Part shown: one piece after another, positions 1,970 to 47,647 of the stretch
Layout of the letters: every line of letters begins with the position of its first letter
Position numbering within the stretch: the stretch's first letter is position 1
From: Escherichia phage HC6
Sequence record: OL362274.1
DNA: 47,726 nucleotides
Reading direction: 5' to 3' (one strand)
The notes under the pieces: generated by a model
Told to the model about the DNA's origin: nothing
Databases searched by the model: none
Seen by the model: only the letters and a program-made list of their open reading frames with translations
Program-made: the position numbers and the translations under genes

Positions 1970-2001
1970 TTGACCAATCTACACCGAGCGCATAGTATAA
2001 T
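1970..2001 (+). promoter_or_regulatory. sigma70-like promoter (TTGACC - 17 nt - TAGTAT) overlapping AATCTACAcc motif
   Basis: hexamers read directly; 30 nt upstream of ATG 2030. Confidence 0.4.
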
Positions 2002-2029
2002 CTACATCAGGCTTATCGGAGATATCACT

Positions 2030-3015: not shown

Positions 3016-3176
3016 TGGCGCTATTCTGGTCGTTCTGGATTCCACTTAATTTTATGTTCTGGTGGTTTATAGCAGCCGGAGTGCAAGAGTCAAGCAAGAT
3101 ACATTTCATGATTAGTTCATTTTTCGCTGTGATGACTGGTGTTGTGCCATGCTTGTTGTATCAATATTTCAAATAG
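3015..3176 (+). CDS. small membrane protein
   Basis: 53 aa (MALFWSFWIPLNFMFWWFIAAG...), below track cutoff; start overlaps upstream stop. Confidence 0.45.
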   Translation: MALFWSFWIPLNFMFWWFIAAGVQESSKIHFMISSFFAVMTGVVPCLLYQYFK

Positions 3177-4856: not shown

Positions 4857-5787
4857 CGCCAGACTTCCGCAACCCCGCATATCACAGAGCCTGACAGACC
4901 CGTTAGGCGCTGCAACTCGCCTGTCAAAGATGGACAAGGTGATAACGCGCAAATACAAACAACTCAGGACTCGTTCGCTTGAGTTGTTTCGCACCATTCC
5001 GAGCAGTCAGACCAACGCAGAATCAAGTGGTCTGTATTTCTACGATTTCAGTAGTGCGCGTGCCGCTACGTTCATGGATGAGTTACAGGAGCTGGTTGAC
5101 GAGATTCTGCTGGAAGGTGATGATTTTAGTCATGGCAGGATGTGGGCCAATGTGTTCATTGGTGATGCGTATCAGGCGGGGACGCAGAAGGCTAACTCTG
5201 AGCTGTCAAGTCTTTCTCCGGTTTATGCTGAGCAGAGGCCGATTGCCACGATACTCTACAGTGAGCCTTATCTTAATCGACTGCAACTGGCGCACACAGC
5301 AGGATACTCAGACTGGCGCGGGTTGAGTGATTATTCCCGCCAGCAACTGGCATCTGTCATCATGGAAGGCATTGCGCGTGGTGCCAATCCTCGTGATGTT
5401 GAGGATGATATCGTCAAGCGTGTCGATGTATCTCACAGCTACGCAAAACAGATTGCGCAGACTGAAATAACCGGAACGCTGCGGCAGGCAAACAGACGGG
5501 AGGTTATTGAGGCGCGCGAAGAATTAGGTATTGAAACGGTTATGCTGTGGCAATCAGCATTAATGCGCACAACCCGCCAGACGCACGCGGCGAGACACGG
5601 ACTGTTTTACACGCCAGAAGAGATTGACACATTTTATAGCGAGAATGGCAATAGATATAATTGCCACTGCGCCCAGGTACCAACACTGTTAATGGATGGC
5701 AAGCCAGTCATTCTTGAGTCGTCACAGGAAAGGTTAGACAAGCAACGAGATGCGTGGCAATCGGCAAACAAAAAGCCCTCTAAGTGA
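4831..5787 (+). CDS. head morphogenesis protein (Mu F-like minor capsid protein)
   Basis: about 319 aa, resembles Mu F-like head morphogenesis proteins by recollection; start could be ATG 4831, 4837 (GGAAG RBS 6 nt upstream) or 4930; overlaps portal end. Confidence 0.75.
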
Positions 5788-5799
5788 GGGCTTGGTTTT
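5771..5799. terminator. bidirectional hairpin terminator
   Basis: GCCCTC / GAGGGC stem enclosing the head-morphogenesis stop codon; T-run on minus strand, weaker on plus. Confidence 0.45.
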
Positions 5800-7340: not shown

Positions 7341-7382
7341 TTGATGTAGATAATATGCACCACCACTCAATCTACGTCAACA
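7341..7382. promoter_or_regulatory. divergent promoter region with paired TCTACRYCA motifs
   Basis: TTGATGTAGATAAT (inverted copy) and TCAATCTACGTCAACA between divergent genes 7319 and 7424. Confidence 0.4.
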
Positions 7383-7423
7383 CCATTGTGATAGAATTAA
7401 TTATTATTTGAACAGGAGGCAGA

Positions 7424-8100: not shown

Positions 8101-8572
8101 ATACTGGCGACCACTAGTAATTATTATAATTGTTGCTGCTGGCGCGTTGTGGGTAGCAAATAAAGTATCCAGCTATGGCGAGCAGCAATATGCCGCTGGA
8201 TATGCAAAAGCAATCGCAGACCAGAAGGCCGCAGACAAACAAGAGGAGCAACGACGCAATGCAGAACTGCAAAAGATTCAGGCCGACGCACAGCAAAGGA
8301 TTGATGCTGCGCGTAATGATGCTGTTAATGCTGCTGCTAAGTCTGGCAGGTTGCAGCAACAACTCACCAGTATCCGCAAGCAGCTCGTCGGATATTCCAC
8401 CGCTGAGTCCATTGGCAACCCAGCCGCAGATACCGGAGTTTTGCTTGCCGATGTGCTCAGCAAATCTATCGAAAGAAATCGACAACTGGCAGATTATGCT
8501 GACAGGGCAAGAGAAGCGGGATTAGCGTGTGAGGCGCAGTATAATTCGCTGCGCAATAAAAAAGCCCCGTGA
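8081..8572 (+). CDS. i-spanin (Rz-like)
   Basis: 163 aa; N-terminal TM (WRPLVIIIIVAAGALWVA), then Q/A/R-rich coiled-coil-like region; directly after lysin and holin. Confidence 0.7.
   Translation: MMSILAKYWRPLVIIIIVAAGALWVANKVSSYGEQQYAAGYAKAIADQKAADKQEEQRRNAELQKIQADAQQRIDAARNDAVNAAAKSGRLQQQLTSIRKQLVGYSTAESIGNPAADTGVLLADVLSKSIERNRQLADYADRAREAGLACEAQYNSLRNKKAP
8316..8525 (+). CDS. o-spanin (Rz1-like lipoprotein) embedded in i-spanin gene
   Basis: +1 frame inside 8081..8572; MMLLMLLLSLAG-C lipobox; Pro-rich mature part; 69 aa. Confidence 0.65.
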   Translation: MMLLMLLLSLAGCSNNSPVSASSSSDIPPLSPLATQPQIPEFCLPMCSANLSKEIDNWQIMLTGQEKRD

Positions 8573-8590
8573 TGGGGCTTGTGTTTAATT
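8557..8590. terminator. bidirectional rho-independent terminator
   Basis: AAAAAA-GCCCC-gtgat-GGGGC-TTGTGTTT; T-run on both strands; between convergent gene blocks. Confidence 0.6.
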
Positions 8591-9714: not shown

Positions 9715-9896
9715 CTCACCACCTCAAATTTAATTTTCACCACCTCATCAGTTGATGCGCCATTCTCAACAACCCATTTATAGGCATCAAACCGGTCTTC
9801 AAAGACAATCATTCTTGACGGGGTGTCATCACCATCCCCATTAACATAAGAGACCGGTGCACCTCTGTCGTTTATTACTGTCCATCTTTCCATCAC
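9711..9896 (-). CDS. hypothetical small protein
   Basis: 61 aa; overlaps neighbours by 4 nt. Confidence 0.45.
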   Translation of the reverse strand: MMERWTVINDRGAPVSYVNGDGDDTPSRMIVFEDRFDAYKWVVENGASTDEVVKIKFEVVR

Positions 9897-10093
9897 TCGC
9901 CTCTCAATGTAACCTTGTTGCTTTCGTCAACATTAAAATTAGCCCGAATCAAATCATACATCTCATCCTTTGGCATATCAGCCAGTGCCACATAGCAACG
10001 GGCAAAGTAGCGAACATCACGGAGTGTCAGTGGCTGACGCTTCTCCACAATGCTGGTGATAATGTCCATCGGCTCGCGTCGTGGTCTTGGCAT
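9893..10093 (-). CDS. hypothetical small protein
   Basis: 66 aa; first gene after divergent promoter region. Confidence 0.5.
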   Translation of the reverse strand: MPRPRREPMDIITSIVEKRQPLTLRDVRYFARCYVALADMPKDEMYDLIRANFNVDESNKVTLRGE

Positions 10094-10120: not shown

Positions 10121-10165
10121 TTGACGTTTCTACATCACTTAGTCAATACTTATTGACGTAGATTG
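10121..10165. promoter_or_regulatory. divergent promoter region with paired TCTACRYCA motifs
   Basis: TTGACGTTTCTACATCAC and inverted TTGACGTAGATTG between divergent genes 10093 and 10193. Confidence 0.4.
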
Positions 10166-10192
10166 TACCACAACGGAAAAGGTGATGTGGAA

Positions 10193-10645: not shown

Positions 10646-10893
10646 GCGCACCACACATGCCAGTGATGAATGAGAACGGATTGCTTGAGTGCCCATGCTG
10701 CGCGTCCAGTGAAATTTATCTGGTTAAAACAGTAGGTGGCTGGAGTTATGTTGAGTGCGACTCATGTTTGCTAAAAACAGAGCATGGTAAGTCACCGGAA
10801 TTGGCAATAAAGACATGGAATCGTCGCAACGGGCACCTCTACACCGCAGAAGACTTCAACCAGGCAGCAGAGGACCGTGATTATGGACTATAA
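10633..10893 (+). CDS. Lar-family restriction alleviation protein-like
   Basis: CPCC...SSEIY...CDSC...AIKTWNRR matches my recollection of the Lar zinc-ribbon pattern; start 10633 or 10642. Confidence 0.55.
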   Translation: MVEMSAPHMPVMNENGLLECPCCASSEIYLVKTVGGWSYVECDSCLLKTEHGKSPELAIKTWNRRNGHLYTAEDFNQAAEDRDYGL

Positions 10894-11371
10894 ATCACAA
10901 ATCATGCGCGTGATTATCAATCATCCTGGTGCAACGCGCGCATACATTGAAAAGCATTGCGGAGGGAAGCATTCAAGCACCACGACGCATCGTCTGCATG
11001 AGATGCTTGCGCTTGGCTTCATTCGTCGCGAGAAGTCAGTGATTCGTGGCGGCAAATGGCAATATAAATATTTCATCTCTGATGATGCGGCTGGTATTGA
11101 TGATGCGATTAAGTGCCATTTACTTGATAACTCTGGCGCAGAGGTGAAAGAAATTAGCGCAGCCACTGGCATTGATTACCGAATCGTGAAAAGCCGCATC
11201 CGCATTATGTTTCATAACGGTGATGTGACGCGAAGCTATGACCACCACAAGAAGCTATGGCGCTATTCATGGCGTGAGCAGGAAGTTAACGTCAGCAACC
11301 TGTTCAATTCACTTCTTCGCAACGCAAGAGGTCAGCATGGGAAAAGCAAAACGCAAGAAGCAAGAGTATGA
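10883..11371 (+). CDS. putative DNA-binding protein (tandem winged-helix-like)
   Basis: 162 aa from ATG 10883; two HTH-like segments; inference only. Confidence 0.5.
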   Translation: MDYKSQIMRVIINHPGATRAYIEKHCGGKHSSTTTHRLHEMLALGFIRREKSVIRGGKWQYKYFISDDAAGIDDAIKCHLLDNSGAEVKEISAATGIDYRIVKSRIRIMFHNGDVTRSYDHHKKLWRYSWREQEVNVSNLFNSLLRNARGQHGKSKTQEARV

Positions 11372-11495: not shown

Positions 11496-11855
11496 ATGAG
11501 ATGGGCTATTAAGCATAAATCTGGCAGGACTCTATTTGTAACATCAGATGAATTTATTGCCAATAACCGTGGAAAGATGGGCTGGATAGTGGAGGAAGTG
11601 AAGATGACGAGCAGAGAGCAGTTTAATAAATGGTTTTATGAATACACCGGGTGCGACCCAAAGGATAGCAGATATGTGAATATGGTCGAGATGTATTGGA
11701 TGGCGTGGCAGGCATCGCGCGCAGCAATTGAAGTTGCAACGCCGTGGCTATGCGGAGATGGTGATAACGATAACGAATGGACTGAAGGCTATAACGATGG
11801 CGTCATGGCGACAGAGAAAGCAATTATCAGTGCAGGCTTAAAGGTGAAAAAATGA
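11496..11855 (+). CDS. hypothetical protein
   Basis: 119 aa track ORF. Confidence 0.55.
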   Translation: MRWAIKHKSGRTLFVTSDEFIANNRGKMGWIVEEVKMTSREQFNKWFYEYTGCDPKDSRYVNMVEMYWMAWQASRAAIEVATPWLCGDGDNDNEWTEGYNDGVMATEKAIISAGLKVKK

Positions 11856-12181
11856 TTATCCAACTAAACGACATTATGAAAGCAGACATCATTCAGCTTG
11901 AAGATTATGACGTGCAACTGGCATTTGAAATTGAAACCGTTGAGCGTCAACTGCAATATGCAGATAAGAAGAGTGATCGTATCTGGCACGAGAAAGCACT
12001 TAAGGCACGCGACCACATGAAACGCACACGAGCACTCATTAAAACCCGACTGGATAAGTTGTATTTTGGCGAAGAAAGAATGATTCACGGGGCGATACTG
12101 GCGCAAATCCGTAAGGAAATGCCAATTGGCAAGTTTATGTCATACGTCCACTGGGCGAAGCAGGAGGCTGGATTGGTATGA
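11852..12181 (+). CDS. hypothetical protein
   Basis: 109 aa track ORF; ATGA overlap with upstream gene. Confidence 0.55.
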   Translation: MIIQLNDIMKADIIQLEDYDVQLAFEIETVERQLQYADKKSDRIWHEKALKARDHMKRTRALIKTRLDKLYFGEERMIHGAILAQIRKEMPIGKFMSYVHWAKQEAGLV

Positions 12182-12700: not shown

Positions 12701-14583
<1,883 letters not shown>

Positions 14584-14585
14584 TA

Positions 14586-15656
14586 ATGGAAAAGATTATC
14601 TTTACCAAAGATTTGGTAGCCAACTCCGCAGTAGTGGCTGACCAGTGGAAACATCTCACCATCGACCGCAAGGTGTTCTGCAATGCAGAAGCTGAGCTGG
14701 CGAAAACTTACGGTGTTAACGCCACCGCACTGGTAACAAAAGATTACTGGCGCGACGTGGACAACGTCACCACCCGTGTTTTCCGCAACGAAGCTGGTCA
14801 GGACATGATGGCTGACCTGATGGGTATCGCGGCAAACATCAATATCGGTAAGACCGTGGCAATCAGCCGCATTGCTTCCGATGCTGGTAAGGTCGTCCGC
14901 ACTCTGTCTGGTCAGGAGCCGGAGGATTTGGATAAAACTCGCTACGATTACACTGGCGATGTGATTCCAATCTTCAAGACTGGCTACAGCCGCGAATGGC
15001 GCGAACTGCTGGGTATGCAGTCTGAAGGTTTTGACCCACTGCTGGACGATCAGGCTAACGTTACCTTCAACCTGCGTTCCGACATGGCGCAGTACCTGCT
15101 GACTGGCGACCAGACTCTGAACGTGAATGGCGTTTACACTGGCTACGGTATCACCAACCACCCGAACACTGTTCAGGTTAACCTGAAAGCTTCCGGCGGC
15201 CTGAATATCGACCTGCAAACCGCAACGCCAGACGAAATCGTGACCTTCTTTAATCAGGATTTCCAGGCCATTCTGGATGCGCAGAACGTATTTGAGCAGG
15301 TGACTCTGTGGGTTTCCCCGGCAGTACGTCGCAGCTTCATGCGTCCGTATTCTAATGCAGCAGGCTTCAAAGGCGGCACGGTTGAGCAGTACATCACGCA
15401 GTTCGGCAACGGTCGCATCGGCAAGATTGGTACCAACTTCCTGCTGACTGGCAACCATTTCGTTGGCTACGTTCGCAACGACATGTACATCCGTCCGCGT
15501 GTTGCTCAGCCTGTCTCCACCTATGCGGCGGCACGTGTCAACCCGCACGATAACTTCAACTTCCTCGTGTGGTCGGCTTTTGGTCTGCAAATTCGCAAGG
15601 ATGCCACTGGTAAATCCAGAGTATTCAACGGCTACGGCACGCAAACTCCGGTGTAA
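14586..15656 (+). CDS. major capsid protein
   Basis: 356 aa; GGAGAG RBS; strong terminator downstream; highly-expressed-gene codon choice; position in head module. Confidence 0.8.
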   Translation: MEKIIFTKDLVANSAVVADQWKHLTIDRKVFCNAEAELAKTYGVNATALVTKDYWRDVDNVTTRVFRNEAGQDMMADLMGIAANINIGKTVAISRIASDAGKVVRTLSGQEPEDLDKTRYDYTGDVIPIFKTGYSREWRELLGMQSEGFDPLLDDQANVTFNLRSDMAQYLLTGDQTLNVNGVYTGYGITNHPNTVQVNLKASGGLNIDLQTATPDEIVTFFNQDFQAILDAQNVFEQVTLWVSPAVRRSFMRPYSNAAGFKGGTVEQYITQFGNGRIGKIGTNFLLTGNHFVGYVRNDMYIRPRVAQPVSTYAAARVNPHDNFNFLVWSAFGLQIRKDATGKSRVFNGYGTQTPV

Positions 15657-17673: not shown

Positions 17674-18473
17674 TAAACGGACCTCATGAATGCTTTAATG
17701 AATTCTTCTGCGACTTGTGGAACTATGGCATTACCATAACCGCGCAATCGTCCCACTCTTGCGGATACCCCATGAGTTGCCTCGCAAAATCCGCCTGGTA
17801 TGACTCTAGTTTCCTTATCTGCTCCATGGTTGGGTTTCCATGAATCCCATAAACATGAAGCCACATCTGGCGATAAAGAGTATCGTTCCTGAATTTCCCG
17901 TCCTTTCTGTAAAATGACTTGCTGAGATTCCCGTAATCCTTCCATCCTCGCGCCGTTGGTGTCGCCCATCCTCGCGCCAAAGATGATTCTTTTCCTTTCC
18001 TGTGGAGAGCCGACGCTGCAAGCTGGCAATACTGACGCCCCGCAGGCGTAGCCTTTGTCTTCCAGGTTAAGGAATACAAAATCGAGCCAGTGCTTCCCAA
18101 TTGCTGCTGCAACCTGCTCTCCAAACAGCAATTCAGGCTTGCACTCTCTGATGAGCCTGAGAAATGCTGGGGCAAGGTGTCGATCGTCGTCAAATCCGAG
18201 AGACTTACCGGCAACGCTAAACGGCTGGCAAGGTGGTGATCCTGTCCAGAGTCGAGTGCTTTCTGGTATTCCTGCCAGCTGGAGTGCAAGGGGCCACCCT
18301 CCGATTCCGGCAAAGAAGTGACACTGTGTAAATCCTTCCAGGTCTGAAGGGGTGACTTCGGTGATTGATCGTTCATCGACATATCCGTAAGGAATTAGTT
18401 TATTGTTAATTAATTCACGCAGCCATGCCGCTGCGCCCTTGTCCCACTCATTGTAATAGTGGACCATCATCAC
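17673..18473 (-). CDS. DNA (cytosine-5)-methyltransferase, compact
   Basis: 266 aa; FFAGIGG (motif I), PPCQPFS (motif IV), GEQV (motif VI), QERKR (motif VIII), GNAIV (motif X); little room for a target-recognition domain. Confidence 0.75.
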   Translation of the reverse strand: MMMVHYYNEWDKGAAAWLRELINNKLIPYGYVDERSITEVTPSDLEGFTQCHFFAGIGGWPLALQLAGIPESTRLWTGSPPCQPFSVAGKSLGFDDDRHLAPAFLRLIRECKPELLFGEQVAAAIGKHWLDFVFLNLEDKGYACGASVLPACSVGSPQERKRIIFGARMGDTNGARMEGLRESQQVILQKGREIQERYSLSPDVASCLWDSWKPNHGADKETRVIPGGFCEATHGVSARVGRLRGYGNAIVPQVAEEFIKAFMRSV

Positions 18474-19279
18474 ATCTTCTCCAGAATTGCCATCACCTCG
18501 TGAATATCAGCAACAGGAATCTTGATAAACTCCTCATTCTCTGCCACTACATGACCAGCAAGAAGAATAACGTGGTCAGCTGGCTTCAGTAACTCAATCA
18601 GTCGGTCTACTGGCTTAATCTTTTTCGACTTAAGCACCTTCGCCGTTACCTTATCCTTGCCTTGCGCCTTCGCTTCTTCGACTGCCTCGTCGATAACTTT
18701 AACCGCATCATCGCCATGTTCGCGAGTTACTGCTACGGCATTTGCATAGCTGATTTGCCCTGCACTGATTCGCGCTTTTACTTCGGCTGGCACATCACCC
18801 AGTGACAGGTGCATCTGCACGTCAGATACTGAACGGCCGACCTTTTTGGCGATTTCCTCATTGGTCCAGCCAAAGCCTTTCAGTCGCGTGTAAGCCTTTG
18901 CGCGCTCAAATGGGTCAAGCTGCTTACCCTGACTGGATGACACCATGAAGGCAATTTTATCGGCCTCATCGCCAGTGAAATCCTTACACTCAATACGAAC
19001 GATTGGTGCGCCGCGCTCAATGGCACGCAATGCGCCTAGATAGCGATGCTGACCATCAAGAATGCGGATTCCCTTCTCATCAGGAATAACTGTTAATGCT
19101 GGTAATGGCTGACCTGATTCCCAGCACTGCGCGAAATACTCCACATGCTGCTCGTCTGCTTCGCGGATGTTGTATCCCGGCTCCAGATAGATTTGCTCCA
19201 CTGGCACGAGATAGGTTTTGTTAACAGCGATTCCGTTGCGCGTTTCTTTGTCTGAATAGATTTTGCTAAGTGTTTTCAT
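18470..19279 (-). CDS. ParB-like nuclease domain protein
   Basis: 269 aa from ATG 19279; ILDGQHRY ParB/sulfiredoxin-type motif plus HTH-like EIAKKVGRSVSDV. Confidence 0.7.
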   Translation of the reverse strand: MKTLSKIYSDKETRNGIAVNKTYLVPVEQIYLEPGYNIREADEQHVEYFAQCWESGQPLPALTVIPDEKGIRILDGQHRYLGALRAIERGAPIVRIECKDFTGDEADKIAFMVSSSQGKQLDPFERAKAYTRLKGFGWTNEEIAKKVGRSVSDVQMHLSLGDVPAEVKARISAGQISYANAVAVTREHGDDAVKVIDEAVEEAKAQGKDKVTAKVLKSKKIKPVDRLIELLKPADHVILLAGHVVAENEEFIKIPVADIHEVMAILEKM

Positions 19280-20125: not shown

Positions 20126-20185
20126 TTTCTACGTCACTAACTATAAACGCCACATCAATCTACGTCAACAGGAATATGCTAAAAT
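20126..20185. promoter_or_regulatory. divergent promoter region with paired TCTACGTCA motifs
   Basis: TTTCTACGTCAC and TCAATCTACGTCAACA followed by TAAAAT -10-like hexamer; between divergent genes 20104 and 20216. Confidence 0.45.
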
Positions 20186-22603: not shown

Positions 22604-22680
22604 TGGTGGACACGGACGGATTTGAACCTTCAATCAGCCGATTATTAGTCGGTTGCTTTAACCAATTAAGCTACGCGTCC
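22604..22680 (-). tRNA. tRNA, anticodon AAT (Ile-like) by hand fold
   Basis: 77 nt cloverleaf on minus strand: 7-bp acceptor stem, GCTT/AAGC D-stem, GGTTCAAATCC T-arm, encoded CCA; anticodon and isotype need tRNAscan-SE. Confidence 0.6.
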
Positions 22681-22682
22681 AT

Positions 22683-23180
22683 AAGTGCTGGTTTAAGCAT
22701 TGCCAGCGTGCTTTCTTAACATCCAGCCCCGTAACCCATACGTACCCCTACATATGATTGCGATAATGCTGGATATTAAGTGTTGTGGTGGCCGGTGCTG
22801 ATCTCCGGCATAAGGCGCTTATTCGGCGGCGTCGAGCTTGCTTATTCGCTTGAGCCATCCTCGTGAGTCAGCCACGTCCCACTGCGCATCAGCCTGCGCA
22901 TTCACCACAACGGAAAGAGCACTGATGCGCTCACTTGGGACTCCTTAGCCATAACCCACGGGCTTCTGGTACACCAATGCTCTTACCTGTTGTGTTCCCT
23001 GACTTATTAATCACACCTCAGGGACGCAGTGCGCCGAATTTGTTTACAAGGAATCGGAAGACCTTGCTGACTTACAGGCTATTACGCCGCCATCAGAACA
23101 ACATCATCGTTTGCATTTATCTTTGTGGTCAGTTTCTAAAAAGTCCGCAAAGTCGCTCACGAAAACTATCTGAAATACAA
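22683..23180. other. ORF-free structured region, candidate ncRNA or cis element
   Basis: about 500 bp with no convincing ORF; long imperfect hairpin 22876..22941 and hairpin TCCCTGA...TCAGGGA near 22993..23021. Confidence 0.3.
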
Positions 23181-23222
23181 TCTACACCACAAAATAATCG
23201 CTGTCAACACCTGTGATATAAT
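23181..23222 (+). promoter_or_regulatory. promoter with extended -10 (TGaTATAAT) and upstream AATCTACACC / TGTCAACAC elements
   Basis: nearly same architecture as 24554..24603; 37 nt upstream of major tail gene. Confidence 0.45.
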
Positions 23223-23258
23223 CACCACGTTAGCAGCTAACACAATTCGGAGATCGAA

Positions 23259-23980: not shown

Positions 23981-24010
23981 AAAAAGCCCCGAAAGGGGCT
24001 TTGTTTTATT
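23981..24010. terminator. bidirectional rho-independent terminator
   Basis: AAAAAGCCCC-gaaa-GGGGCTTTGTTTTATT. Confidence 0.6.
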
Positions 24011-24553: not shown

Positions 24554-24603
24554 GAATCTACATCACCACCTCGCAGGTGTCAACACTACTGAGATGATAT
24601 AAT
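24554..24603 (+). promoter_or_regulatory. promoter with extended -10 (TGaTATAAT) and upstream AATCTACATC / TGTCAACAC elements
   Basis: shares element order with 23181..23222; upstream of tail chaperone and tape-measure genes. Confidence 0.45.
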
Positions 24604-24623
24604 CAACATCAGTCAAATTCAGG

Positions 24624-31549: not shown

Positions 31550-31588
31550 TACAATATACATCAAATTCACAAAGGAGCATTTATTATA

Positions 31589-36553: not shown

Positions 36554-37498
36554 TTATAAATTAAACTGTTTTTTGAACCATTCAGGCGTTTCCATTTCTA
36601 TGACAGGATTACCCATTGAATAACCGGGCCACGAATTGGCTTTTTTGCACGCCTTGTAAATTTCCATAGCGCCATGCAACTGAATTCGACCGATGCGTAA
36701 TTGCTCTTCAGTCAAGCGAATTAACGCAGGAATAAATGGTGCTTTCTTTTCCTGAACGAGAAGATTAACAGAGCGTGGCGCATGACCATATGCCGCAACA
36801 AACATGTCGTGCTGCATCGCCATTTTCATAAAGTACCCAAGTCTCGCAGCATGACGGAAAAACTCTTCTGGCTTGGCGCTCACCGCTGTTTTGTAGTCGA
36901 TGATGTCGCCACCTTTGGTAAGGCAGTCAAAGCGAACTTTTGCCTTCTCTCCGTTAAGTTCACCTAGAATTGACACTTCAGCATAAGCACCAGCGAGAAG
37001 ACTGCTGTAATAGCTGTTTGCGTGGATTACAGCACGCATTTGCTGAATAGCGTCATAATCACCACCTTCCAGCATTTGCTTTCCTACAGCAGCTTTTTCA
37101 GCCTCTTCACGGATGACATCGTAAATTTTCACTGGCTCGCCAGTCGCCTGGATGATTTTGATCACCTCAGCTTTCGACTTTCCTGAAAGTCCTTTGATGC
37201 CTCGTTCTTTTGCCCATGAGTTCATATCACTTACAGTAACAAGCAGGTCATCACCAAAATCTTCTTTGGTTGGCATTCGTGCATATTCAGCATCAAAACG
37301 CTCTGGTTCAAGCAACGCAGTATGGCTACCTGTACCGAATATAAGAGCTTTTGATTGCTCATCCTCTTCGTCTTTGTATCGCCATGCTGCCGGGCATCTG
37401 TCAAGTATATTCCATAATCCAGAACCATTAATGTGCTCTGTGTCAGCATGATAATCCTGATTGCTTAATTCATTGTTGAAATAAACTCTCATCATCAC
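36554..37498 (-). CDS. PD-(D/E)xK family exonuclease
   Basis: 314 aa; D...IIDYKT resembles PD-(D/E)xK core; context with Sak4-like and SSB. Confidence 0.6.
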   Translation of the reverse strand: MMMRVYFNNELSNQDYHADTEHINGSGLWNILDRCPAAWRYKDEEDEQSKALIFGTGSHTALLEPERFDAEYARMPTKEDFGDDLLVTVSDMNSWAKERGIKGLSGKSKAEVIKIIQATGEPVKIYDVIREEAEKAAVGKQMLEGGDYDAIQQMRAVIHANSYYSSLLAGAYAEVSILGELNGEKAKVRFDCLTKGGDIIDYKTAVSAKPEEFFRHAARLGYFMKMAMQHDMFVAAYGHAPRSVNLLVQEKKAPFIPALIRLTEEQLRIGRIQLHGAMEIYKACKKANSWPGYSMGNPVIEMETPEWFKKQFNL

Positions 37499-38121
37499 TC
37501 TCCGTGGTTACAGAATTCTTTATGCATCTTTTCTCTGAATTTCATCACAGACAACCTCGCTCTCTCAATATCATTGAATAACCCAAGATGGTATCTTTTC
37601 CCGTTAACATCACAGTAAGCATGCCACTTTTTAACCTGTTTTTGCCAATACACACCTTTAACTCCTGATGTGTTATTTTTTGGTTTTTTAGCGTTATACT
37701 GGTTCTGCATATTTGTTGCGATTCTTAAGTTGCAAATCCTGTTATCGTCACGCACACCGTTAATGTAATCAATTTGACCTTCAGGCCAGAAACCATAATA
37801 AATCAACCATGCCAAGCGATGCGCGTAGTATCTTTTATTATTTATGCTTATCTCTATGTATCCGTTATGTTTTTTCCTGCCAGCGACAATACCCTTTCTT
37901 ACACCTCCACCCGTCTTATTTCTAATGAAAACCCCTGTTTCATGGTTGTAATTTAAGCTATCCAAAACAACATAACGTGGTATTCTTTTTCTTCTTCCTA
38001 TGGTGTTTGACTCTGCACTTCCCTGAGCAAAATCTTGCTTTTGCAGTTCCGATAAACTCATTTCCACAAACCTCGCACTTCTTAACGGTGATAGCCATTT
38101 CTTACCCTCTATTGTAATCAT
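37495..38121 (-). CDS. HNH homing endonuclease with AP2-like domain
   Basis: AHRLAWLIYYG...IDYIN...DNRICNLR and GVKGVYW...KW.A motifs; paralog of 24..536. Confidence 0.8.
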   Translation of the reverse strand: MITIEGKKWLSPLRSARFVEMSLSELQKQDFAQGSAESNTIGRRKRIPRYVVLDSLNYNHETGVFIRNKTGGGVRKGIVAGRKKHNGYIEISINNKRYYAHRLAWLIYYGFWPEGQIDYINGVRDDNRICNLRIATNMQNQYNAKKPKNNTSGVKGVYWQKQVKKWHAYCDVNGKRYHLGLFNDIERARLSVMKFREKMHKEFCNHGE

Positions 38122-38166: not shown

Positions 38167-38592
38167 TTAATCTACGTCATCCAGCAAGCCAAAATAGAAA
38201 AGCGTGGCTTTTTTTAATTCATCAAGCCCATAAGCTATGGCAGCATAATGACCAAGCCTGCACATCTCTGTTAGCACTGCTGATTGATCCTTGCTCACCC
38301 TGCTTTTGCTTTTATCGCGGCGCTTTGCTTCAATCATCCCACAACTGTGATTTACCCCCGGAGTCATTATCACATTGTCGCCTATACCAGCCTTAACCCC
38401 CATCTTCTGGCGCTTCAGCACAAACTGCACCCTGCTTGATGTGCCAGTTTCGTTGGGTACATGAAACCACAGAACATCAGGGAAGCGGTGTTGCATCCAT
38501 GTTCCGTAACCCATCTGGTCAGTCTCCTCTTTAGGACACTCACCACGATAACCGCTATCAAATACCCATATGCCGCTATCAAGCTGCTTCAC
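38167..38592 (-). CDS. VRR-NUC domain nuclease
   Basis: 141 aa; GIGDNVIMTPG...IEAKRR...SKDQ fits VRR-NUC pattern as recalled. Confidence 0.6.
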   Translation of the reverse strand: MKQLDSGIWVFDSGYRGECPKEETDQMGYGTWMQHRFPDVLWFHVPNETGTSSRVQFVLKRQKMGVKAGIGDNVIMTPGVNHSCGMIEAKRRDKSKSRVSKDQSAVLTEMCRLGHYAAIAYGLDELKKATLFYFGLLDDVD

Positions 38593-40786: not shown

Positions 40787-40824
40787 TTCTACGTCAGTTA
40801 GCTTATACTCAATCTACACCAACA
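40787..40824. promoter_or_regulatory. divergent promoter region with paired TCTACRYCA motifs
   Basis: TTTCTACGTCAG and TCAATCTACACCAACA between divergent genes 40764 and 40840. Confidence 0.4.
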
Positions 40825-41793: not shown

Positions 41794-41797
41794 AATA

Positions 41798-41822
41798 AAC
41801 CCTCCGACTGGAGGGTTTTTGT
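41798..41822. terminator. bidirectional rho-independent terminator
   Basis: AACCCTCC-gact-GGAGGGTTTTTGTT. Confidence 0.6.
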
Positions 41823-44430: not shown

Positions 44431-44730
44431 CGTGGGTAACGTGGGGCAGCCGTGGGGAACATCACCTTCCCCACGAACTTTTACTCTAAGTATATGTAAT
44501 ATAATAAAATTATTATTATTTGGGGTAATGGGTAATATTATTATTCATATTATAGATAGTAATTAACATAATATTAACAAATGGATTATTTGAATATATT
44601 TATAAGGGGATGGGTATGAAATCTGCCCCACTTACCCAAACATGTTAAAAGCCGCATGGCGCAAGGGTTTCCCGTGGGGCATACCACCTTCCCCACGACC
44701 TGCCCCACGGGCAAAAATTTACCCCACGAG
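44431..44730. repeat. iteron cluster flanking AT-rich stretch (candidate replication origin)
   Basis: seven exact CCCCACG/CGTGGGG copies plus two one-mismatch copies, both orientations, flanking about 140 bp of AT-rich DNA. Confidence 0.5.
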
Positions 44731-44750
44731 CACGTTTTTAACGCATTTAT

Positions 44751-44781
44751 GTTGACGTAGAATCATCATTGATGTAGATTG
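44751..44781. promoter_or_regulatory. promoter region with paired inverted TCTACRYCA motifs
   Basis: GTTGACGTAGAATC and TTGATGTAGATTG 30 nt upstream of ATG 44811. Confidence 0.4.
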
Positions 44782-44810: not shown

Positions 44811-44957
44811 ATGAAAATCAAAGACCGTGAAGAATTTGAAGATGCACAGGCAATGGCACGCATTGCAGTTGAGCGCACAAACAAAAGCATTCCTGCAGAA
44901 GCATTCTGGAACGCAGCAATGCAGGCTTTAATCTCAGCGTATGGGTTAAGCAAATGA
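44811..44957 (+). CDS. hypothetical small protein
   Basis: 48 aa (MKIKDREEFEDAQAMARIAVERTNK...); first gene after candidate origin. Confidence 0.4.
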   Translation: MKIKDREEFEDAQAMARIAVERTNKSIPAEAFWNAAMQALISAYGLSK

Positions 44958-47026: not shown

Positions 47027-47122
47027 ATGTGTTTATGATGCTCTGTTGGCAAGCGCGATAATGATGGTGTACAATAAACGCATAACCACCATTGCTTTCA
47101 CTTATATCATCACCCAACCTTT

Positions 47123-47149
47123 AACCCGCCTTGTGCGGGTTCTTTTTTA
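47123..47149 (+). terminator. rho-independent terminator
   Basis: CCCGC-cttgtg-GCGGG then TTCTTTTTT. Confidence 0.6.
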
Positions 47150-47206
47150 TCTACGTCTATGTGTTAAAATTAGCGTATGTGAGTTACTCAAAGAACACAA
47201 AAAGAC

Positions 47207-47647
47207 ATGGCGAATCCAAATCCAAAACACAAGTTTTCCTCTACAAATCAACCGCCTCCGCGCGGTAAGAGTTATCGCACAGTGCTGCTTGAGGCGCTTC
47301 GTGCTGCAAATACACCGATGAATGAGATTGAATTCGTCACGTATTACATCAATAGGGCCATGACATGCGAAGACGCTCAGGCAACTGGTATGCTTCGAGA
47401 GATATTCCTGCGGCTCAACCCAATTCCTAAGCCTGTAGCTCCTCCTGTGGAGTTTGACTTCCCTGCTGACGGAACTCCGGTTCAGAAAATGGATGCAATC
47501 ATCAAGGGTGTCTCCACTGGCGTCGTGCCTGCTGACATCGGCAAGATGATGGCTGACATTATCAAGTCTGGCCTTGATATTCAGGAAATCACCGAACTCG
47601 CAGCGCGACTTGAGCGACTGGAGAAATTGCTGGAACAGCAACAGTAA
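47207..47647 (+). CDS. putative terminase small subunit
   Basis: 146 aa, basic N-terminus, C-terminal coiled-coil-like LAARLERLEKLLEQQQ; would sit upstream of HNH and TerL if genome is circularly joined; weak. Confidence 0.35.
   Translation: MANPNPKHKFSSTNQPPPRGKSYRTVLLEALRAANTPMNEIEFVTYYINRAMTCEDAQATGMLREIFLRLNPIPKPVAPPVEFDFPADGTPVQKMDAIIKGVSTGVVPADIGKMMADIIKSGLDIQEITELAARLERLEKLLEQQQ

Follow-up and report, generated by a model that had tools for sequence, protein, structure and literature searches.

Asymmetric words set into sigma70-type promoter cores of Escherichia phage HC6: a probable dispersed operator of one phage-wide regulator

The genome of Escherichia phage HC6 (sequence record OL362274.1; the whole stretch of 47,726 nucleotides was analysed and is called the window here) carries a short asymmetric motif, TCTACRYCA, which recurs in the promoter regions of the phage; the element is real and strongly conserved. 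In its wider form, WWTCTACRYCA, it probably constitutes a dispersed operator of one sequence-specific regulator, set into the cores of host-sigma70-type promoters at nearly every boundary between transcription units. An operator family of a phage-wide regulator is a known type of system; what is unusual is that the operator shares its bases with the -35 and -10 hexamers themselves and that the probable binder, as judged from its sequence, is a ParB/KorB-family protein in a virulent phage. As far as the searchable literature on this phage group goes, the motif is undescribed: the genome announcements and biocontrol studies mention neither the motif nor promoters, the E1 genome paper (PMC2293211) lying outside that search.

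Occurrence and conservation of the motif

On both strands together, TCTACRYCA is found 14 times (Table 1), against 1.19 ± 1.14 matches expected, and none of 100 shuffles reached 14. Thirteen of these exact sites are situated entirely within non-coding DNA, which makes up 7.06% of the genome (binomial P = 1.4e-14), and the remaining one, at 38171, falls on the final codons of a gene on the minus strand. The density of exact sites amounts to 3.9/kb in non-coding and 0.02/kb in coding DNA, a ratio of around 170-fold; a similar density inside genes, which a preceding sequence-only reading of this DNA had named as the result that would speak against it, was clearly not found. That reading had noticed the recurrence of TCTAC(G/A)(T/C)CA, its nearly exclusive intergenic placement, and its occurrence in pairs, some of them inverted, all of which is borne out here. 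Its coordinates agree with the exact sites to within a few bases, those near 1976 and 47149 corresponding to one-mismatch copies (1978 and 47150). Overstated was the frequency of a longer form, as the 16-mer TCAATCTACGTCAACA is found exactly at 7367-7382 and 20155-20170 only.

The sites form six pairs, with a start-to-start or centre spacing between 17 and 31 bp and in tandem, divergent, and convergent orientation, and each of the seven divergent intergenic regions contains at least one copy, mostly as a pair. Concerning the word itself, a weight matrix built from the 14 exact sites gives WWTCTACRYCA as the informative core. At the two variable positions, only purines are exchanged for purines and pyrimidines for pyrimidines, which is the pattern that would be expected for a protein recognition site. 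A matrix scan and a one-mismatch search added five weaker copies (1978, 24603, 31555, 47065-47073 on the minus strand, and 47150), the settings of which are promoter-like or look regulatory. Whole-genome k-mer counts were swamped by coding bias, and the motif was recovered only with counts limited to intergenic DNA.

The phage is a Skatevirus-like virulent siphovirus and is grouped with other small virulent siphoviruses in a cluster that comprises Skatevirus, Akiravirus, Macdonaldcampvirus, Caminolopintovirus, related Klebsiella phages, and the BASEL phages Bas77-81; of its members, STGO-35-1 has been predicted to be virulent (PMC8954984). The group is widely isolated for the biocontrol of Salmonella, E. 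coli, and Klebsiella, and also includes the genome-minimised seszw. Relatives from Salmonella, Shigella, and Klebsiella share the motif, with 11-17 copies per genome: 11 in E1, 14 in Klebsiella phage 6991, 15 in SB28, 16 in Akira, and 17 in STGO-35-1, where around one copy is expected in each. Between the phage studied here and the Klebsiella phages, the capsid DNA of which is around 77% identical, orthologous intergenic regions exhibit 90% identity within the motif against 64% outside it (Fisher P = 2e-8), and the differences at motif positions fall mostly on the tolerated R, Y, and W. In a set of metagenomic relatives (L198-L203, with 63-73% identity in the ParB-like protein described below), WWTCTAC words are still enriched intergenically, the 3' part of the motif being relaxed in L198 and L199 (e.g., AATCTACC). 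A pattern scan for motif pairs across viral contigs yielded mainly chance matches.

The motif family thus exhibits the characters by which a dispersed operator is recognised, i.e., the same asymmetric word many times over, found in regulatory DNA and hardly elsewhere, and retained in related phages. It maps essentially all regulatory regions of the phage, and in genome engineering, deletions and insertions must keep its sites intact.

Table 1. Exact and one-mismatch copies of the motif in the window, with the predicted promoter elements around them, and the two helix-turn-helix protein genes considered as regulators
Feature	Position	Strand	Setting
One-mismatch copy TCTACACCG	1978..1986	+	Spacer of rightward promoter, 2 nt past -35-like TTGACC (1970-1975); kept in E1, STGO-35-1, SB28, and Akira
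Motif TCTACATCA	2001..2009	+	Begins on last T of -10 TATAAT (1996-2001); upstream of 68-aa gene 2030-2236
Motif TCTACATCA	7342..7350	-	Immediately past -10 of leftward promoter 7380..7352; orthologous site reversed in Klebsiella phage YX3973
Motif TCTACGTCA	7371..7379	+	Reverse complement forms -35 TTGACG of leftward promoter (7380..7352); 12 nt upstream of lysis-operon extended -10 TGATAGAAT (7389-7397)
Motif TCTACATCA	10129..10137	+	Spacer of rightward promoter TTGACG (10121)-18-AATACT (10145-10150)
Motif TCTACGTCA	10154..10162	-	Begins on last T of minus-strand extended -10 TGGTACAAT (10170..10162); convergent pair with 10129 (+)
Motif TCTACGTCA	20128..20136	+	Around -3 to +6 of leftward promoter of EaC / ParB-like operon; within invariant block CATTTATTGTTGTTTCTACGTCA
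Motif TCTACGTCA	20159..20167	+	Reverse complement forms -35 TTGACG of leftward TTGACG-17-TATAGT (20168..20140); 12 nt upstream of head-tail operon extended -10 TGCTAAAAT (20177-20185)
Motif TCTACACCA	23181..23189	+	Reverse complement forms -10 of leftward TTGACA-17-TAGATT (23207..23179), facing tRNA; rightward extended -10 TGATATAAT nearby (23214-23222) serves major tail gene
Motif TCTACATCA	24557..24565	+	Reverse complement forms -10 of leftward TTGACA-17-TAGATT (24583..24555)
One-mismatch copy TCAACATCA	24603..24611	+	Begins on last T of extended -10 TGATATAAT (24595-24603), which serves tail-chaperone / tape-measure operon; identical in the four relatives whose region clustered (E1, STGO-35-1, SB28, Akira)
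One-mismatch copy TATACATCA	31555..31563	+	Immediately past TACAAT, in short gap ahead of tailspike gene
Motif TCTACGTCA	38171..38179	+	Overlaps stop region of minus-strand gene 38167-38592; in relatives, reverse complement forms -10 of TTGCCT-17-TAGATT promoter (read by eye, no tool prediction)
Motif TCTACGTCA	40788..40796	+	Spacer of rightward promoter of primase gene, TTGATG (40780)-18-TATACT (40804-40809)
Motif TCTACACCA	40813..40821	+	3 nt past -10 TATACT; on opposite strand within spacer of leftward TTGATT-16-TATAAG promoter (read by eye)
Motif TCTACGTCA	44753..44761	-	Plus strand forms -35 TTGACG (44752-44757) of rightward promoter
Motif TCTACATCA	44770..44778	-	Plus strand forms -10 TAGATT (44775-44780) of the same promoter (44752-44780, TTGACG-17-TAGATT), which drives small-gene operon starting at 44811, presumed early
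One-mismatch copy TGTACACCA	47065..47073	-	Plus strand forms -10 TACAAT of TTGGCA-18-TACAAT (47046-47075)
One-mismatch copy TCTACGTCT	47150..47158	+	Just past terminator 47123-47141; 3 nt ahead of extended -10 TGTTAAAAT (47162-47170); upstream of ORF 47207-47647 and terminase genes; conserved in Kp6991, STGO-35-1, and YX3973
ParB/KorB-like protein, 269 aa, DGQHR-type N-domain	18470..19279	-	Best regulator candidate
MarR-like / tandem winged-helix protein	10883..11371	+	Disfavoured as regulator

Register with promoter hexamers and the operator model

The reverse complement of the core, TGRYGTAGAWW, holds both a -35-like word (TTGACG, given a preceding T) and a -10-like word (TAGATT), and the motif regions contain promoters of the sigma70 type, i.e., hexamers 16-18 bp apart or an extended -10 element. 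Eight of the 68 promoter-like matches returned by a consensus scanner (for example, the leftward TTGACG-17-CATATT at 7380..7352) overlap the 14 exact sites, where around 0.7 would be expected according to a hand estimate.

Spacing was analysed in 315 distinct site contexts from 74 related viral contigs. A TTGACA hexamer (at least 5 of 6 positions) upstream of the TAGAWT of the motif is situated exactly 17 bp away in 74 contexts and 18 bp away in 29, with 46 different spacer sequences, and any other spacing between 14 and 21 bp occurs in a single context. Concerning the TTGRYG-type sites, 62 of 114 possess a -10-like hexamer exactly 17 bp downstream. Furthermore, an extended -10 element (TGnTAnnnT) follows the forward motif after 11-13 nt in 53 distinct contexts, the spacers of which have diverged, and the same layout is found in the window ahead of the lysis operon (7371) and of the head-tail operon (20159).

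The motif is always situated within the core promoter, yet in several registers and in both orientations. Recurrent placements are the spacer, 2 nt past the -35 (1978, 10129, 20128, 40788), and a start on the last T of the -10 (2001, 24603 and, on the minus strand, 7350 and 10162). The full 9-mer is kept whichever of its halves acts as a hexamer, and also where neither half does. Because 9-11 bp are conserved irrespective of hexamer use, something beyond sigma70 must read the whole word, and since the word may point either way and its place within the RNA polymerase footprint varies, a repressor-type operator fits better than a directional promoter element. That the copies serve one phage regulator as a common operator or promoter element, as had been supposed from the sequence alone, is well supported by the intergenic enrichment, the conservation in diverged relatives, and the fixed hexamer registers.

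Promoters with hexamers built from the motif are mostly -35-dependent, and those in divergent regions point leftward to accessory and DNA-metabolism operons. The lysis, structural, and terminase operons have extended -10 promoters that need no -35 (TGATAGAAT, TGCTAAAAT, TGATATAAT twice, and TGTTAAAAT). A regulator bound to the full word of 9-11 bp would occlude RNA polymerase at the promoters of the -35/-10 type, mostly the leftward ones of the accessory and DNA-metabolism operons, and its binding at back-to-back or overlapping divergent pairs would shift transcription to the promoters with an extended -10 that serve the lysis, head-tail, tail, and terminase operons, such that the element might act as an early-to-late switch or as a global shut-off.

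Candidate regulators and alternative explanations

The motif yields a concrete hypothesis of one regulator, for which a ParB/KorB-like protein with a helix-turn-helix (HTH) is the first candidate. Going by its matches, this is a genuine ParB-family HTH protein: Pfam finds HTH_ParB (2.4e-11) and the KorB domain (5.9e-6), the structure matches include Spo0J (1vz0, 6e-13) and KorB (8qa8, 3e-3; also 1r71), and the parB_part, Noc, and DGQHR models are matched as well, all below their curated cut-offs. Residues 95-165, HTH included, are 100% identical between the E. coli and the Klebsiella phages, and gene and sites occur together in 32 of 33 evaluable relatives. The gene is kept in the 36.6-kb minimal genome of seszw, from which both neighbouring genes are deleted, and its operon is driven by the motif-bearing leftward promoter predicted at 20168. 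Besides a dispensable MarR-like protein, it encodes the sole conserved protein with a Pfam-recognisable HTH.

Evidence from more distant relatives points in the same direction. In L198-L203, the recognition helix RSVSDVQMHLSL is unchanged and the parB-like gene possesses a promoter of its own, TTGAC(C/T)-17-TAATCT, the -10 of which (TAATCT) is overlapped by an inverted pair, GTAGAT-N4-ATCTAC, around 30-55 nt upstream of the gene start (e.g., L200 9955-9985); this is a classic autoregulatory layout. Relatives with 47-49% identity in the ParB-like protein have a different helix and are without the motif, no such motif being found in Kp4864-1 (48% identity), for instance.

Taken together, sequence comparison makes the ParB/KorB-like protein the most likely binder of the motif: given the operator model, its chances would be about even, and over all readings the assignment is a tentative one. 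As the binder, it would also autoregulate its own operon. Hardly firmer, and if anything slightly less so, is the proposal that throughout the virulent enterobacterial siphoviruses of this family (Skatevirus, Akiravirus, Macdonaldcampvirus, Caminolopintovirus, and the Roufvirus-like Klebsiella phages), a ParA-less ParB/KorB protein with a DGQHR-type N-domain might be a global transcription switch which, through around 15 asymmetric half-site operators within the -35/-10 hexamers of overlapping divergent promoters, would silence early -35-dependent promoters in favour of late extended -10 promoters. Should the protein bind, KorB-type global transcriptional control, known from plasmids, would also be found in virulent phages and would employ asymmetric half-site operators there.

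The speculative candidate of the sequence-only reading, the tandem winged-helix or MarR-like protein (Pfam MarR_2 below the cut-off; a match to PHROG 1687), is disfavoured. Its gene is a 23-residue remnant in Akira, which possesses 16 motif copies all the same, and is deleted in the viable minimal genome of seszw, which keeps 13 copies; in the Klebsiella phages, where the motif is unchanged, the protein retains just 37% identity and its putative recognition helix has diverged. A function at the RNA level was rejected because the orientation of the motif relative to transcription varies; Rfam finds the tRNA only. Neither does a methylase target fit, as the motif is variable at its central positions (R/Y) and is kept in SB28 and in the majority of the other relatives, all of which lack a homologue of the cytosine methylase.

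Several points weigh against the operator reading or its ParB-like binder. Every promoter, here and in the relatives, is a consensus prediction, and the total number of promoter-like matches of the scanner is no higher than in shuffles. SB28 is without the ParB-like gene, yet has 15 sites; this weakens the assignment without excluding it, because this is just one isolate, and its sites also serve as promoter hexamers. How closely the phages are related overall confounds the association of the ParB helix with the motif. ParB, KorB, and Noc have palindromes as their known sites, whereas the sites in the window are single asymmetric words with variable pair spacing, an inverted pair being found in some relatives only. 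A small phage protein that went unrecognised, or a conserved protein of the host, could also be the binder. Finally, the strict spacing of 11-13 nt to the extended -10 suggests positive control at some sites and not pure repression.

Concerning the genome of SB28 itself, a natural deletion at 14409-14823 comprises EaC and the ParB-like gene save for its last 29 residues, and leaves both motif copies and the promoter region around them in place.

The strict spacing is also the core of the alternative that survives best, although we consider it rather unlikely, namely a positive element of promoter specificity resembling the MotA box of phage T4, where a phage activator or a sigma-appropriation factor at around -30 would direct the host RNA polymerase to those middle or late promoters that have a good extended -10 and no -35. 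The copies at 7371 and 20159 end 12 nt ahead of TGATAGAAT and TGCTAAAAT, no -35 is present there, and the operons behind them (lysis and head-tail) are late ones; in the relatives, the spacing is held in the 53 contexts mentioned above despite the divergence of the spacers. Most copies, however, are situated elsewhere (in spacers, at the -10, at +1, or at -40 to -53) and in either orientation, one orthologous site being flipped, and the identical sites form, in exact register, the -35 or -10 of promoters on the opposite strand. Furthermore, the Pfam, PHROG, and NCBIfam matches include neither a sigma factor nor a protein resembling MotA or AsiA. Activation of the MotA type and the operator model could coexist in a dual-function regulator, and direct activation at the two late promoters may be a second function of the same protein.

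Less likely still is that the binder is a conserved protein of the enterobacterial host (Enterobacteriaceae) or another, unrecognised small phage protein, the ParB-like protein being unrelated to the motif. The motif is constant across phages of Escherichia, Salmonella, Shigella, and Klebsiella, whereas most phage proteins diverge; each recognisable HTH gene is dispensable in some viable phage; and several small core proteins of unassigned function are kept in the minimal genome, the candidates among them being 2030-2236, 9893-10093, and 11852-12181. Against this, the 3' part of the motif relaxes in the more distant relatives (e.g., AATCTACC), and no DNA-binding signature was found in the small core proteins. 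No site of an E. coli regulator is known to match the motif, those of CRP, FNR, IHF, DnaA, MetJ, NarL, EvgA, sigmaE, and others included. As regards the 68-aa core protein 2030-2236, the promoter of which bears two motif copies, an HTH-like pattern (YSLARAGV.DE..C.RYD.DE..LLR) is conserved in the Klebsiella phages, its third helix being acidic.

A little more doubtful still are parS-type sites, i.e., centromere-like or loading sites of the ParB-like protein that would serve genome organisation, condensation, or protection and would be intergenic only because coding sequence cannot hold them. The encoded ParB-family protein does possess an N-terminal ParB/DGQHR domain, and the distant ECO1230-10 (43% identity in the ParB-like protein) has six ACAATSATTGT palindromes, one of which closely precedes its parB-like gene. 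An exact hexamer register of 17-18 bp in more than 160 contexts is, however, not expected of loading sites; the sites are asymmetric half-sites; a ParA-type ATPase is neither annotated nor detected among the 72 proteins of at most 220 aa; and partition has no obvious role in a virulent phage. ECO1230-10 is an unrelated Jilinvirus, with the palindromes at 3080, 5302, 8424, 18637, 37203, and 40471, one of them around 80 nt upstream of the parB-like gene, and they may constitute a parS-like set for its ParB-like protein. Two intergenic TCTACATCA sites flank the parB-like operon of that phage; because of its own palindrome, these were not counted as support for the operator reading. No homology was found between EaC and its Orf6.

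Quite improbable, lastly, is that the word has no dedicated binder and is a by-product of sigma70 hexamers (TTGACG + TAGATT) spread among promoter cassettes by duplication or recombination: although the reverse complement does contain a -35-like and a -10-like hexamer, each used in register, the half not used as a hexamer is equally strongly conserved, forward copies in spacers and at +1 employ neither hexamer, and the variable positions exchange only purines for purines and pyrimidines for pyrimidines.

Comparison with known systems and observations near the motif regions

The operators of the C1 repressor of phage P1 are reportedly asymmetric 17-bp sites scattered over the whole genome. Both systems share a single asymmetric word that occurs more than 14 times per phage genome, singly or in pairs and in either orientation, over the -35, the -10, or the +1 of many operons. 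P1, however, is temperate, with C1 as its immunity repressor, whereas the phage studied here is virulent and no C1 homologue was seen in it; moreover, the present word is shorter (9-11 bp) and doubles as promoter hexamers.

KorB of plasmid RK2 is a ParB-family global repressor with 12 OB sites, the OB site being a 13-bp palindrome bound by a dimer. Similar are the ParB-family HTH protein, the dispersed sites at or near the promoters of many operons, and the autoregulation, which is a candidate role here. KorB differs in having KorA and IncC (ParA) as partners, whereas neither a ParA nor a KorA is found here, the phage is lytic, and the sites are asymmetric half-sites. The stoperators of gp71 in mycobacteriophage L5 are said to be asymmetric 13-bp sites in around 30 copies; they too are dispersed and serve a single phage regulator, which probably reads them as a monomer. 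They depend on orientation and block elongation inside the operons of a temperate phage, whereas in the present case the sites are located at promoter cores and orientation is free: pairs are found in each of the four possible arrangements, and the Klebsiella phages carry one orthologous site in reverse.

The T4 MotA box, a 9-bp asymmetric box that stands in for the -35 and keeps a constant distance to a strong or extended -10, is matched by 7371 and 20159, but only a minority of the copies exhibits this geometry, a MotA or AsiA homologue is lacking, and the same copies form the -35 of the opposite promoter. Protein p4 of phi29, at the divergent A2b/A2c-A3 promoters, offers a parallel for one regulator that, from between close divergent promoters, represses early transcription and favours late transcription; in phi29 this concerns one region with inverted-repeat sites and p6 is needed, whereas here at least seven divergent regions and unidirectional ones share the word.

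Further observations concern the surroundings of the sites. Strong bidirectional terminator hairpins (5773-5793, 8562-8580, 23983-24002, and 41797-41818) are situated where opposed transcription units meet, and together with the motif regions they outline around 10 alternating transcription units. Close to the right end of the window, the coding sequence (CDS) annotated over the copy at 47150 is probably wrong, because a terminator hairpin precedes the site and the extended -10 and ORF 47207-47647 follow it; within 47046-47647, both transferred CDS (47061-47321 and 47318-47647) look misannotated. The promoter-like sequence at 47046-47075, followed after around 50 nt by the strong terminator at 47123-47141, could define a short non-coding RNA or a leader. 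The ORF (146 aa) is situated just upstream of the HNH and large-terminase genes, and its counterpart in STGO-35-1 is annotated as DUF5681.

Downstream of the motif-embedded leftward promoter 23207..23179, a single tRNA gene (22604-22680, minus strand) is identified by ARAGORN as tRNA-Ile with anticodon AAT, whereas its equivalent in STGO-35-1 and Akira is annotated as tRNA-Met (CAT). Such an anticodon would be unusual in bacteria. The adjoining 578 bp (22681-23258) are without an annotated gene, and E1 and SB28 possess an 'anti-repressor' gene there; ORF 22935-23216 has a weak match to a PHROG family of unassigned function.

Beside the motif pair 44753/44770, hairpin-type repeats of the form CGTGGGG...CCCCACG (44440-44475 and 44672-44740) flank a very AT-rich stretch (44500-44580); similar repeats are annotated in E1, and the region 44440-44740 may be a replication origin or packaging region. 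Finally, two genes resembling HNH_3 homing endonucleases (24-536 and 37495-38061) vary in presence among the relatives and look like mobile insertions. Pfam finds three HNH_3 members, two with an AP2 DNA-binding domain, of which 24-536 is individually confirmed for both, and one gene of this type separates the motif copy at 38171 from the recombination genes.

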